From assembly GCF_000002865.3 (NCBI RefSeq), contig NW_001865044.1:1211628-1275627 (forward strand): a stretch of DNA of 64,000 bases, read 5' to 3'. A model generated the notes under the pieces. That model was not told the origin of the DNA. It did not search any database and worked only from the letters and a program-made list of their open reading frames with translations. Made by a program: the position numbers and the translations under genes. This DNA comes from Monosiga brevicollis MX1. Taxonomy: Eukaryota. This document shows, in pieces, positions 2,576-10,049 of this stretch; the stretch's first letter is position 1; each line of letters opens with the position of its first letter.

Positions 2576-4782
2576 ATGTTGGCCGCCTCGACCACAAGCA
2601 ATGATATTGCTGCCCCAGCTCTGCAGCGCAAGAAGGTGAGCACACCAGAGGGTTTGTTGACAGAGAAAGAAGGCTTGCGCACTCCATCGACAGCAGTGCA
2701 AGGCATCGGGTTGGACCGAGCTCACACACCCAACGGGTGTTTGCTACCCATGCCTGGTTGCAGAAGCTTGGAGGATTGGCGCCCCAACGGTCCTCTGAAT
2801 TGGCGCTTCTCAATTCCAAGGCCAAGGTGAGTCTGTCGCCCGCAAACAACTCGATTCGTGTCTTTGTTTGATTTCTTCCTTTTTTGCTTGAAGGGGGGGG
2901 AGCGTCCTTCCTTGCTAGCTAGGTTGTTTACATGAGCCCTCACACACACTCACTCTCATCAATCTATCTATCTATCACACTTGCCCAATGCACGTTTCCT
3001 CGACATAGGTGATTGAAGCTGCAGTTGATGAGCTCGGCAAGCGCATTTCCAAGTCAGTCACACTTTCACGCCGGAATCGCGCACAAACTGCCCACTCTCA
3101 AAATCAAATGTCATCTCAATAGGCTTAATCAGAATGTTCGACCGGGCGTTTCCGGCTTTCGTGCCGAGTTTGAGGTTAGGCTCTCCGCACTCTCATTCCC
3201 TCTCTTTGGCTGTGTCTTTGGTGAAGCGGACAGTGCACGCAAACACGCCAAGTATACACAAGGAGATCGTGCACACCTCCATCACAAGCAAAAAAAGTTG
3301 TTCACTCAGCAGTCCGCTCTCGTCACAGAAACTCGAGCAAGAAACCATGCGGCAGGCCGCGTCAGCCAAGTACAAGGCCGGATATGACAACATGGACAGC
3401 AACCGGTCTGCAAAGCGTCTATGGCGCGAAATCGATAGCTCCGTTGCGTTCTCAACACGGTGGTGTGCAACTTTGCTCATTGGATGGCCGCCTTCTTTGC
3501 GCGCGTGCAGCTACGAAGACATTCTACCGTTTGATCATAATCGCGTCAAGCTCAAGTGCAAGAATGACTACATCAATGCCTCGTACATCAAGAATCTCTT
3601 GACGGGTGCCCCTGACTTTATCGCCAGTCAGGTAAGTCATGCGCCAGGCCTATTCAAGTTTGCCTCTACAGCATGCCAAACCAGCATCCCGACACTTGAT
3701 CTTCCTACCCTCATGCACCGGCGCCTTGTGACGTTGGAACACACCATCGGCAGGGACCCACGGTGCCCACCATCCGTAGCTTCTGGGAAATGATTGCACA
3801 GTACAAACTGTCCGTCATTGTAATGGTGACCAATGTGCTTGAGGGCGATTTGGTCAAGTGTGACCCCTGTACGAGATGAGCTACCCTGAATCTGCCACAT
3901 TTCTGCTCTCCTTTGTCACATCACTGTGGGTCACTCTTGTTGCACTCTCGGACGCATAGATTGGCCCGAAATCGGACAAACCCTATCTTTTGGCAGCAAT
4001 AGCGAGTAGGCTATCACGTGCCCACGGCATTACATCCCCACCTTGGTGACCAGGTTCATTGCTCATGCCAAACTTTTTTTTTTCATCTGGATACAAACCC
4101 ACATAGGTTTGATGGCAGCCTCTCGGTTCAACAGCTTGATGCGTCCGATGGCGTGGCCTGGAGTCGCCGCACCTTTGCCCTGCACTACAACGATGAGCCA
4201 GAGCGGCGTATTACCCAATTTCATTACACGGACTGGCCTGACCAAGGCGTCCCTGCCAGCCCTCACTCCTTTGTCCAGTTTGTTCGCACCGTCATGACCT
4301 CTCAGCAACGTGCGCAAGCCTCTGTTGCCGCAGCCACGGTAAGGCCGCCCTGCGTCCAAGCTGTCAGTCGCAGAAACCTTTCTTCTTACTTTACCACTCT
4401 CCCTGGCCCAGCCACCGCTCCTGGTGCATTGTAGTGCTGGGGTCGGCCGAACCGGAACTTTCATCGGCACGTACGCCACCCTTTGCTCCCTGCACGGCAT
4501 TCGCCGCGACAAACACAGGTCAGGCAGGATCGGAATCCAAACTATCGCTTTCTTTGCTTTGTTCTTTGTTATGCGTATGCTCAGCCAAGACGGGCCTTGC
4601 CTGACCTCTATCACCCTGCAATGCGCTGACGACATGCAAAATATAGCATTATGATTCCTCTTCTAGTGCGCGAGATGCGACGCCAGCGCATCTGTATGGT
4701 TCAGAGTCTGGCACAATATGAATTTCTCTACAAGAGCATCCTCATCGCCATTGATGAGGTGAGTGTGCATCTCCACCCCGCG

Positions 4783-4813
<31 letters not shown>

Positions 4814-7800: not shown

Positions 7801-10049
7801 CCAACACCAACGTCAAGCGCGATTCTGTGCGCCCAGCCAAGCGAGCCGGTGAGGTGCGCCAGTTTCAGGAAGCTGCCCGCCCCACCTCCTCACTCATGCA
7901 CATGGAGCAGGCAGAAACGCCTTCCATCAGCGCAACCGGGCTGGCCAATTCGATTCGCCGTAGCCGACGCAAACAAAACCGTAGCTCCATTGCTTCCATC
8001 GTGCGTGGCAAAAAGGGCTCTTTAGAGGCCATTGCACCTGCGGGCGTGCATCTGCCAACCGGCCTCATGGCTCGCATGAATGGTGGTCAATCACCATGCC
8101 ACAACACGGCCAGACGCAGCGTTGTTCTACAGGACTTACAGAATATGGACGCAGAAACCGACGCTGACGGATTAGAAGACCCATACGCCAATCTAAACGA
8201 CAGCGAGGATGAGGGCGACTACGCAGCAACAGAGGATGAGGCTGGCGTTGAAGGCATGGGCGCGTATGATTCCGAGGTGGGATCTGAGGACGACGATGAA
8301 GATGACGATGAGTTGGTAGCTGCGGCCAGTGGGCGTTTTGCAAACCTGCGACATTCAATTCGCCTTTCGCCCCACGCGGCCCCGGTGCTGACACTGGATG
8401 ACACGGAAGAAATGCTTCAAAGTGGGCCCGAGCTGCTGGATCAACCCTGGTACCGACCTGCCGTGACCCGCGACGACATGGTTGGGCTGAAAACGTTAAC
8501 GCCTGGCAGCTTTATCGTGTACCCTTCCAAAACAGATCCTGGAAACTTTTGTCTCAGTGCGTGGACGGGAGAACAGGTCTGGACTGGCCTGATCGTGGTC
8601 GGTGAGGACGGCGAATGCAGTCTAGAGAATACCGACGACGCCTTTGATGATGTCGTGGATCTCGTGGAGCACTACTCGGAGGACCCAACGCCATCAGGCC
8701 TATGCTTGCTGCTGCCAGCGGCAGAACCCGTCAGCCCCAAACCAGCCAGCTTGGCTAATCCCGACCCGCCATCTCTGGAGCAGTCGCGATCAGGCTCGCG
8801 CTCCGAACTTTTGCGTTCACCCTCGGTGGTTCGGCGCCGTGGTGGATCGGCGCGACGAACGCGCCCACAAACTTTTGTGGGCACCAACGAGGACGAAGAC
8901 CTGCTATCACGAGGCATCTCAGCCGAGTCACTCGGGGCAAGTGTTGAGAGCGCTGATCCCTACATCGAAATCCTACCCCGCTCAAAGCAGCGCCAGACCG
9001 AGCAGCAGGAGGGTAAGTTGAGCAATGACTCTACTCACCGGCCGCCGATCGCACCCAAGCCCAAGGCAAAAACTAGCCCCAAGCCGCTCCCCCGGACGCT
9101 GACACCCCCGTCTCTGGAATCAAACCCACAACCTCAAGCGCCGGAAGAGGCAAACGAGGCTCAGAACGAGACTCAGAACGAGTTTGACAAAAAGGCCAAC
9201 TACTACAAAGATGAGTTCTTTGGGCAGATTCTCAGCGAGAGCGAGGATGCGGCCACAAACGAGGGAACCGAGCAAGGCGAGGCCGAATTTGAGATTGGCT
9301 ACGATGAATATGGAGGGTTTTACGATGAATATGGTGAGATTGGGAGTGAATTTGACTACAGCTATGGAAAGAAAGCAAAGTGAAACTACAACGGCTTCCG
9401 GCGCTAACTTTCTTTCCACTGTGCACGTATAGGCGGCTACTATGATGCTGAAGGCGGCTACACCGACGTGGCGGGCACGTATTACGAGCCGGGGACCTGG
9501 ATTCATGAGGATGCGGCTGCAGAATACGACTGTCAGATGGAGGGCGCCGTCATGCTTGTCGGCGGTGGCCGTACGTTGACCTCAAGTGCCTACCTCAATG
9601 GATGCAGCGTTCAAGATTGGCCAATGTGAACTCACTGCTCAACTGTTCTGTATTTGTGTCTCACTTGCAAAACACAGAAAAGCGTCGGAAGAAAGCGCGG
9701 CGCGAAGAAAAGTGGCTCTACCTGACGTCAACAGTCCTATCGGTGCGAGGCGCGCCAGCAAAACTTTGCAATCTGAGAATGACACGCTCATCTCACACTC
9801 ACGCCACTGGCCATCTTCCCGCTCCGTTGCATTTGCTGGCAGGTTTACGAGATGGATGACGAAGCCATGGTAAACCCGTTGTCAACGCTCGACATCCGGC
9901 CAAGCACAGAGTTTACTTTCCTGACCCCCGGCATTACAGCATGCACGCATAATCTGGTGGTGCACTTTGAGGTGCCGGACAGCACTGAGTTTGCACAATG
10001 GAAAGATGCCCTCATCAGTGTGCGCAAGGCTGCCACCAGCAGTGCATGA
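2576..10049 (+). CDS. Multidomain signalling protein: classical protein tyrosine phosphatase - RasGAP (NF1-like) - NUDT9-like Nudix - RhoGAP - SH2 - Tyr-rich repeat - PH; multi-exon, start uncertain
   Basis: PTP: NRYEDILPFDHNRVKL, YINAS, DWPDQGVP (4231), HCSAGVGRTG (4427), MVQSLAQYEFLY. RasGAP: LFRRNSLGSK, FFLRFLSPALVTP, LSKVVQAVA. NUDT9-like: [32 protein letters not shown]. RhoGAP: EGIYRVSGS, NRMNQENIALVFGPTI. SH2: QPWY...GSFIVYPS...DLVEHY. PH: KWLYLT...QWKDAL. Phase-compatible GT-AG introns link the PTP through to the large exon 5643-9333 and on to the PH exons. Confidence 0.85.

Follow-up and report, generated by a model that had tools for sequence, protein, structure and literature searches.

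How many signalling activities are joined in the protein encoded at positions 2576-10049 (+) of a 64,000-nucleotide stretch of the Monosiga brevicollis MX1 genome (contig NW_001865044.1; this whole stretch is called the window below)? A first-pass annotation had read this locus as one polypeptide combining a protein-tyrosine phosphatase (PTP), a RasGAP, a NUDT9-like domain, a RhoGAP, an SH2 domain, and a PH domain, and had inferred a hub that jointly dampens phosphotyrosine, Ras, and Rho signals at membranes. Our analysis indicates that the locus quite probably represents one gene for a cytosolic protein of about 1871 residues, in which a PTP, a neurofibromin (NF1)-like RasGAP, a dead NUDT9-homology (NUDT9H) domain, a RhoGAP, an acidic linker, an atypical SH2 domain, a linker rich in Tyr, Asp, Glu, and Gly, and a divergent PH-like end follow one another, and which would act as a combined off-switch. 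Each domain belongs to a known family, with two departures: the NUDT9H domain lacks the Nudix box, and the SH2 domain lacks the expected Arg. Of greatest interest is the conserved pseudo-NUDT9-RhoGAP unit, which is undescribed as far as our searches reach.

The gene model, with splice sites read from the sequence and checked by a script, comprises 17 exons on the plus strand (2576-2635, 2764-2826, 3009-3052, 3123-3174, 3329-3405, 3511-3631, 3754-3868, 3960-4005, 4107-4338, 4412-4518, 4647-4758, 4892-5161, 5331-5546, 5643-9333, 9433-9570, 9678-9742, and 9843-10049), which yield a coding sequence of 5616 nucleotides and a protein of 1871 residues with no internal stop, closed by the stop codon at 10047-10049. 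All 16 introns are bounded by GT-AG. The longest stop-to-stop open reading frame (ORF) at the locus, 5643-9383 (+), has 1246 codons and is accompanied by many short open pieces upstream and downstream. Introns 11, 12, and 13, which lead from the PTP to the N-terminal half of the RasGAP domain and on into this long ORF, are all in phase 0. When a codon-usage score was trained on exon 14, the modelled frame was the best one in every exon tested (0.06-0.86 per codon, exon 2 being the weakest), whereas the tested introns and the 3' untranslated region reached at most 0.22 in any frame. An in-frame stop (2555-2557) precedes the ATG at 2576. Farther upstream, in head-to-head orientation, lies a minus-strand gene (131-856, 975-1808) for a protein with domains of the immunoglobulin type (Ig_3, E 2e-23; I-set, E 1e-18); since it fills 131-1808, an additional 5' exon is unlikely. 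Judged from the sequence, the locus is a single genuine protein-coding gene. Two irregularities of the DNA were noted within it: a CT-dinucleotide run followed by a C-run in intron 11 (about 4790-4830; 4773-4848 was masked as a repeat in read mapping), and a base at position 6375 in exon 14 that is missing in one low-depth contig of read run X8 (depth 2.3) and present in run X1 (depth 11). The latter is probably a contig error.

Do the PTP and the GAP domains belong to the same polypeptide? The answer comes from relatives. A word-based search identified three of them at 38-46% identity, and a HMMER search run exhaustively on 1.84 billion representative sequences, a library without organism names, returned 9220 matches at E<=0.001, 18 of which reached E<=1e-30. 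The choanoflagellate relatives P0006, P0165, P0022, and P0007 share 38-57% identity, and all are hypothetical or unannotated. P0007, a 1833-residue ORF in an effectively intron-free record of 5526 nucleotides, carries all six domains (Pfam: PTP 15-280, RasGAP 396-565, RhoGAP 1004-1148, SH2 1349-1423, and PH 1729-1824). P0006, an ORF from the Hartaetosiga balthica transcriptome, has the order PTP-RasGAP-NUDT9H-RhoGAP, and P0022, a hypothetical and incomplete Salpingoeca rosetta protein (XP_004987545, PTSG_13202), contains the PTP and the RasGAP. In P0165, from Acanthoeca spectabilis, and in the MMETSP transcript P0012, a PTP was not detected. In blastp comparisons, the spliced model aligned in one continuous segment to P0006 (model residues 30-1222) and to P0007 (model residues 80-1217), and with P0007 the SH2 domain and the exon 14/15 region were aligned additionally. 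In the multiple alignment, exon junctions 5/6 to 13/14 lie inside conserved blocks and are ungapped, except for one residue in the model at junction 10/11 and three columns in P0007 just behind junction 8/9.

These data bear out most of what the first-pass annotation had stated about the fusion. The RasGAP C-terminal half, the NUDT9-like domain, the RhoGAP, and the SH2 domain do lie in the uninterrupted ORF 5643-9383, which matches PF00616, PDB 1q33, PF00620, and PF00017, and the PTP and the RasGAP N-terminal half do join it through phase-0 GT-AG introns. The claim of one polypeptide agrees with the colinear PTP and GAP domains in the transcript-derived P0006 and P0007 and in the partial P0022, with aligned junctions. 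It had suggested looking for orthologs in other choanoflagellates; family members occur in H. balthica, S. rosetta, and A. spectabilis, and the architecture is conserved among choanoflagellates. The signatures it had quoted (HCSAGVGR, WPD, a Q-loop, FRRNS, FLR, and GIYRVSG) were all recovered and are conserved in the orthologs that cover them. The PTP-RasGAP-NUDT9H-RhoGAP-SH2 fusion can thus be considered established as firmly as comparison among relatives permits.

The classical PTP domain (3329-4758, +) is spread over exons 5-11. Five exon pieces match PF00102 colinearly (profile positions 7-48, 49-85, 101-170, 171-197, and 204-233) with scores of 35.4, 33.9, 42.6, 31.8, and 25.8 bits, all above the cut-off of 20.9, and the exon junctions align with P0006, P0007, and P0022. 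Classical PTPs are recognized by an active-site C(X)5R motif, a WPD general-acid loop, and a Q-loop. All three signatures are present here, namely HCSAGVGR (4427-4450), WPD (4234-4242), and QSLAQY; P0006 and P0007 share all three, and P0022 shares C(X)5R and WPD. Among the 60 matches listed for the PTP of the S. rosetta ortholog, receptor-type PTPs and PTP1B appear at similar per-domain significance. An SHP-like character of the PTP, suggested by the SHP2-like SH2 domain described below, was dropped, as no SHP2 chain was among those 60 matches.

The RasGAP-related domain (5045-6332, +) begins at the end of exon 12, continues through exon 13, and is completed in exon 14. PF00616 matched exon 13 with 37.8 bits (profile 5-67) and exon 14 with 62.8 bits (profile 107-207, E 5e-17; cut-off 28.3), and with phmmer the model residues 395-735 were aligned over their full length to P0005, P0006, and P0007. 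The RhoGAP domain (7278-7712, +) lies directly behind the NUDT9H domain and matches PF00620 almost completely (E 1.5e-33, 116 bits, profile 1-147 of 148), with ARHGAP15, chimaerin, and Myo9b, each at about E 1e-20, as its relatives in the PDB. RasGAP domains are characterized by an FRxNS-type arginine finger and an FLR motif, and RhoGAP domains by an arginine finger of their own. The RasGAP finger FRRNS (5403-5417, +) and the FLRF motif (5832-5843, +) are each conserved in 5/5 aligned family members, the window protein counted. The Arg of the RhoGAP finger GIYRVSG (7335-7355, +) is invariant in a four-sequence alignment and matched in all four members covering the position, and an Asn-containing block follows downstream. 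The E-values of the domain matches are far beyond chance. The catalytic motifs of the PTP, RasGAP, and RhoGAP domains are intact and conserved in the orthologs that cover them, from which enzymatic activity of all three is predicted.

Between the two GAP domains lies the NUDT9H domain (6489-7274, +). Although no Pfam family matched it or the linker that joins it to the RasGAP domain at E<=10, the NUDIX family included, its relationship to NUDT9 is evident from solved structures: human NUDT9 (PDB 1q33) was matched at E 5e-35 (query 15-274 versus chain 28-283 of 292), and ORF residues 283-544 matched human NUDT9 (E about 1e-34) and also TRPM2 NUDT9-H domains from a sea anemone, a choanoflagellate, and human. 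An AlphaFold2 model of the 451-residue NUDT9H-RhoGAP segment, based on 37 aligned sequences, showed a mean predicted local distance difference test (pLDDT) score of 90.5 and a predicted template-modelling (pTM) score of 0.75, with a helix retained at the position of the Nudix helix. A Foldseek search with this model recovered NUDT9 (1qvj, E 6e-17), the S. rosetta TRPM2 chanzyme, TRPM2 NUDT9-H, and many RhoGAP domains, the last at target-normalised TM scores of 0.72-0.86.

The Nudix box itself is missing. In the HMMER alignment, the sequence DFLGVQ (6954-6971, +) stands under REFGEE of NUDT9, and the Arg and all three Glu residues are replaced. According to the available part of PMC6461439, the Nudix box consensus is REUxEE, NUDT9 mutants carrying RILGEE or REFGKK are inactive, the human TRPM2 box RILRQE is hydrolytically inactive with ADP-ribose still bound, and the S. 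rosetta TRPM2 box REFMEE is active. Because DFLGVQ lacks the Arg and the three Glu residues, and smaller changes of the box already abolish activity, the NUDT9H domain is, by these published Nudix-box criteria, a predicted pseudoenzyme unable to hydrolyze ADP-ribose. This feature extends to the family. When 15 NUDT9-like regions drawn from the exhaustive HMMER search were aligned with MAFFT and the box and contact residues read by eye, the canonical box REUxEE occurred in none of the ten RhoGAP-fused members and in all five unfused or TRPM2-like proteins; several fused members have long insertions behind the Nudix-box helix, and the flanking NUDT9 blocks (a Gly/Arg-rich block ending in WGPNH, and NTDNAW) are strongly conserved. 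The junction with the RhoGAP domain is also tight: phmmer mapping of 19 proteins found both domains in ten of them, and in each of the ten the hits are 1-7 residues apart.

The residues that would contact ADP-ribose are kept in part. In the available part of PMC11479946, S. rosetta NUDT9-H contacts the adenine by W1264 and F1372, the terminal ribose and phosphate by D1330, D1426, and R1428, and Mg by E1386 and E1390. Mapped through the NUDT9 HMMER alignment, W1264 corresponds to Trp in the window protein, F1372 to Leu, D1330 to Glu, D1426 to Asp, and R1428 to Arg, and neither of the two Mg-contacting Glu residues is kept. Since the Trp, the second Asp, and the Arg are retained, ADP-ribose binding without hydrolysis is conceivable in the M. 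brevicollis lineage. Across the ten fused members, the Trp is found in one, the Phe in none, the first Asp in four, the second Asp in eight, and the Arg in five.

The SH2 domain (8448-8675, +) departs from its family in a similar way. PF00017 was matched with 24.0 bits (E 4e-5), only just above the cut-off of 21, and among solved structures the domain is closest to the SH2 domains of SHP2 (E 3e-11). An FLVR-type Arg is needed for canonical phosphotyrosine binding by SH2 domains. At the position of the conserved Arg of SHP2, the window protein has a Tyr (8520-8522, +), within FIVYPS, and the same Tyr occurs in P0007 (FLVYES) and in the closer fragment P0023 (FIVYPS), i.e. in 3/3 SH2-bearing members, the window protein included. 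Canonical phosphotyrosine binding by this domain is therefore doubtful, and the conserved Tyr points to a changed ligand, not to decay.

The linkers around the SH2 domain are acidic. The long one between the RhoGAP and SH2 domains (7713-8447, +) is of low complexity, is rich in Ala, Asp, Ser, and Glu, and contains one Y-x-N-type motif, whereas the one between the SH2 domain and the C-terminus (8676-9333, +) is rich in Tyr, Asp, Glu, and Gly; no Pfam match was found at E<=10 in the former (7701-8459) or in the last 211 residues of exon 14. Tyrosine motifs, namely Y-x-N behind Asp-Pro and Y-I-E-I, were observed in these linkers, and Asp-Pro-Tyr motifs resembling them in P0023. From what is generally known of tyrosine motifs of this kind, they may be phosphorylation and docking sites.

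Does the protein end in a PH domain? The putative divergent PH-like domain with a polybasic loop (9537-10046, +) would be formed by the end of exon 15 and exons 16-17. A local alignment of the C-terminal 106 residues of the protein with the PH domain of P0007 spans junction 16/17 and has a score of 45, reached by 3 of 1000 shuffled sequences, and junction 14/15 lies inside the alignment of the Tyr/Asp/Glu/Gly-rich region with P0007. For exon 17 alone, protein-language-model features gave a top match of 0.92, and 10/10 of the best family-bearing matches belong to the PH clan, which can serve as a lead only. The codon scores of exons 15, 16, and 17 in the modelled frame (0.61, 0.25, and 0.40) compare with 0.28-0.81 in secure exons, whereas the other frames of these exons reach at most 0.18 and the flanking introns and 3' untranslated region at most 0.22. 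A Pfam-positive PH domain also closes the relatives P0007, P0012, P0017, and P0018. We consider a PH-like end of the M. brevicollis protein likely.

Of the four read runs, none of which is recorded as RNA, X1, X7, and X8 have contigs that cover introns and are DNA-like, and X3 was taken by guess to be RNA. The X3 contigs cover only 9346-10500, with none over 2576-9345, and they reveal a spliced antisense transcript over the 3' exons (9346-10418, -; contig pieces 5-8): the joints 9516>9594 and 9588>9721 have CT..AC ends, equal to GT..AG on the minus strand, and delimit the alternative minus-strand introns 9517-9593 and 9590-9721, and one contig is unbroken from 9721 to 10418 through plus-strand intron 16. 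No long minus-strand ORF was found in the region 9346-10418. A high-copy repeat starts at 10382 and extends to at least 10500; a loose contig end lies at 10382 in four runs, and the depth there is 893 versus about 11 in X1 (about 80 times the surroundings) and about 125 in X3. A minus-strand ORF of 277 residues (10275-11108) without a Pfam match overlaps this repeat, and a run of more than 20 T follows beyond it at about 11118-11141. Read-through from the adjoining repeat would explain the antisense transcript, which neither confirms nor excludes the sense model.

The sensors proposed in the first-pass annotation have thus fared unevenly. Homology of the Nudix-like domain to NUDT9 stands (1q33, E 5e-35), its hydrolase activity does not (DFLGVQ in place of REFGEE), and any sensing would be that of a pseudoenzyme. 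The SH2 domain is an SH2 domain (PF00017, 24.0 bits), whereas canonical phosphotyrosine sensing by it is put in doubt by the replacement of Arg with Tyr. For the PH domain, the alignment to P0007, the exon 17 features, and the codon usage speak in its favor, and the missing matches to Pfam and to the relatives' profile speak against it, which leaves the evidence weak.

Several observations weigh against the reading of the locus as one gene for a combined off-switch. At the N-terminus, the codon score of exon 2 is near zero (0.06), and exons 1-4 are weakly supported by the P0006 alignment. At the C-terminus, no Pfam PH match was found at E<=1 on the PH exons searched singly, and a profile built from the C-termini of five relatives (P0007, P0012, P0017, and P0018, which are Pfam-positive for PH, and P0165, which is not) found nothing in the model at E<=10; against the 1807 six-frame ORFs of the window, it gave nothing better than E 1.2. 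The read runs contain no sense-strand transcript evidence for this species, X3 having no cover on 2576-9345, and the X3 contigs do not confirm the model of exons 15-17 and locally disagree with it. P0006 ends immediately behind the RhoGAP domain, without SH2 and PH, and therefore shorter forms may exist. Finally, the poorly kept ADP-ribose contacts argue against ADP-ribose sensing as a family-wide function, so that a structural or regulatory contribution to the RhoGAP is a likelier common role of the NUDT9H domain than the sensing of nucleotides.

The points at the C-terminus could be explained if the protein ended at the stop 9381-9383, with intron 14 retained, no PH domain, and 9433-10049 untranslated and overlapped by antisense RNA. 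The long ORF does reach a natural stop at 9383, the exon pieces match neither Pfam PH nor the relatives' C-terminal profile, the X3 contigs show minus-strand splicing and pass without a break through plus-strand intron 16, and P0006 likewise lacks SH2 and PH. Nevertheless, we regard this shorter protein as rather unlikely, since exons 15-17 have codon scores that resemble those of secure exons (other frames <=0.18), the P0007 alignment crosses junction 14/15 and, within a Pfam-positive PH domain, junction 16/17, four relatives end in Pfam PH domains, and the protein-language-model features of exon 17 point to PH. It is very improbable that the gene is silent or decaying in M. brevicollis and its protein used by the relatives only: a frame of 5616 nucleotides over 17 exons without a stop or frameshift, intact splice sites and catalytic motifs, and a codon usage that is positive throughout contradict decay, even though no sense-strand RNA was obtained and the 3' end borders on an antisense transcript and a high-copy repeat.

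The fusion itself could be an artifact of the gene model, the PTP exons (2576-4758) and the GAP exons being two adjacent genes. No RNA of the species was seen across introns 11-13, where X3 has no cover, and exon 12 (4892-5161) is a poorly conserved linker without a family match. However, three relatives, two of them from transcriptomes, have the PTP and RasGAP domains in one ORF, junctions 11/12, 12/13, and 13/14 are gapless with phase-0 introns and an open frame, and the RasGAP domain itself is divided between exons 13 and 14, so that two genes are highly improbable here. A further alternative is that the NUDT9-like domain might be an active ADP-ribose pyrophosphatase, the fourth enzyme of the chain. 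The replacement of the Arg and all three Glu residues of REFGEE, the absence of the box in 10/10 fused members, the loss of activity by smaller changes (available part of PMC6461439), and the missing Pfam NUDIX match make this extremely improbable, despite the strong similarity to NUDT9 in sequence and fold and the source label of the relative P0014, 'ADP-ribose pyrophosphatase'.

Returning to the single multidomain protein, its domain content makes the hub that jointly dampens phosphotyrosine, Ras, and Rho signals at membranes a reasonable inference. The basic PH-like end, the SH2 domain, and the linker tyrosine motifs would bring the protein to membranes or signalling complexes, where the PTP would strip phosphotyrosine at membrane signalling sites, the two GAP domains would speed GTP hydrolysis on Ras-family and Rho-family GTPases, resulting in a combined off-switch, and the NUDT9H domain, welded to the RhoGAP, would tune or support it. 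The most likely role of the NUDT9H domain is to regulate the RhoGAP domain or to support its structure, without catalysis. We lean slightly toward a ligand-free scaffold; that the domain binds ADP-ribose or a related nucleotide in the M. brevicollis lineage is possible though not the expected outcome, and some other role is improbable. A bolder and rather doubtful proposal is that the dead NUDT9H and the RhoGAP form a rigid choanoflagellate-wide supradomain, in which the former hydrolase is now an allosteric sensor of ADP-ribose or an NAD-derived nucleotide that switches the RhoGAP and the linked RasGAP and PTP. If true, stress signalling by NAD and ADP-ribose would be wired straight to the shut-off of Ras, Rho, and phosphotyrosine in the closest living relatives of animals, and the sensor would be an independent parallel to vertebrate TRPM2 in converting the same enzyme into a ligand sensor.

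How widely is this architecture distributed? The named members belong to Hartaetosiga and Salpingoeca, which we take to be Craspedida, and to Acanthoeca, which we take to be Acanthoecida. The core RasGAP-NUDT9H-RhoGAP is, as far as sequences can tell, conserved in a family to which named proteins of both choanoflagellate orders belong. No member was seen from animals, fungi, or other named groups, a weak negative given that the library of 1.84 billion sequences has no names. Homologue searches for longer proteins returned single-domain matches only, as did a search with P0007 as the query, which missed known members and is thus weak on distribution. A first metagenome scan found nothing, and a second one yielded 80 loci, nearly all ordinary NUDT9 genes and none reaching the PH exons; locus L001 (58% identity, 1124 nucleotides, NUDT9H into RhoGAP) was the sole clear family member among them. 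Other domain combinations were also encountered: in P0018, two PDZ stretches take the place of SH2 between RhoGAP and PH, and in precomputed Pfam lists, P0175 has an arginine-kinase-type domain fused to an NUDT9-H-type domain, and P0174 and P0184 are fungal RasGEF-PH-RhoGAP proteins. Elsewhere in the window, an 853-residue open frame (11907-14468, -) resembles protein kinases only weakly, its match (E 0.001, 19 bits) staying under the cut-off of 31.7.

No living group is closer to animals than the choanoflagellates, whose phosphotyrosine and small-GTPase networks serve to reconstruct the origin of animal signalling. Here, one chain would do what animals achieve by a complex (p120RasGAP with p190RhoGAP, and separate PTPs), and this arrangement therefore offers a natural test of whether the shut-off of Ras, Rho, and phosphotyrosine belongs together. 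The dead NUDT9-RhoGAP junction would be a second, independent re-use of the NUDT9 hydrolase as a regulatory module. The idea is open to testing in S. rosetta, which has an ortholog and for which genetic tools exist. That choanoflagellate phosphotyrosine proteins combine domains in unusual ways is well established already, as stated in the available part of PMC3082566. Our literature search found no description of a PTP-RasGAP-NUDT9-RhoGAP protein or of an NUDT9-RhoGAP fusion, and nothing relevant turned up in PMC4342544 or PMC3141262; the 2008 Monosiga phosphotyrosine catalogues and Lim and Pawson (2010) lay outside this search and may list the architecture.

Within its own family, the window protein shares an equal domain order with P0006, P0165, P0022, and P0007, the ends being variable. 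Beyond the family, the nearest functional analog is the pair of p120RasGAP (RASA1) and p190RhoGAP (ARHGAP35), in which, according to the available part of PMC6938330, RasGAP and RhoGAP are coupled with SH2 and PH modules to phosphotyrosine signals. The window protein would similarly couple the shut-off of Ras and Rho with an SH2 and a putative PH-like module. In contrast to these two proteins, which are held together by SH2-phosphotyrosine contact, it has both GAPs in one chain and a PTP and an NUDT9H domain in addition, and among solved structures the best relatives of its RasGAP domain are neurofibromin GAP domains (E 6e-20), p120GAP being more distant (E 7e-6). SHP2 (PTPN11) also combines a classical PTP with SH2 domains, and these are the closest solved matches of the window SH2 domain; nonetheless, the window protein has the reverse domain order, a single SH2 domain, and a Tyr where both SH2 domains of SHP2 have an Arg. 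The nearest analog of the NUDT9H domain is vertebrate TRPM2 NUDT9-H, in which the NUDT9 fold is likewise fused to a signalling effector and the Nudix box inactivated. Here, however, the fusion partner is a RhoGAP, not an ion channel, and the box is more degenerate (DFLGVQ versus human RILRQE), and unlike the window domain, choanoflagellate TRPM2 has an active box, REFMEE (available part of PMC6461439). KRIT1, an adaptor in small-GTPase signalling, offers a further parallel, as its pseudo-Nudix domain has the Nudix fold without hydrolase activity and is thought to mediate interactions (available part of PMC7729028). The window domain would likewise be a non-hydrolytic Nudix fold in a small-GTPase signalling protein, but no sequence relation between the two was detected, and KRIT1 has neither GAP nor PTP domains.

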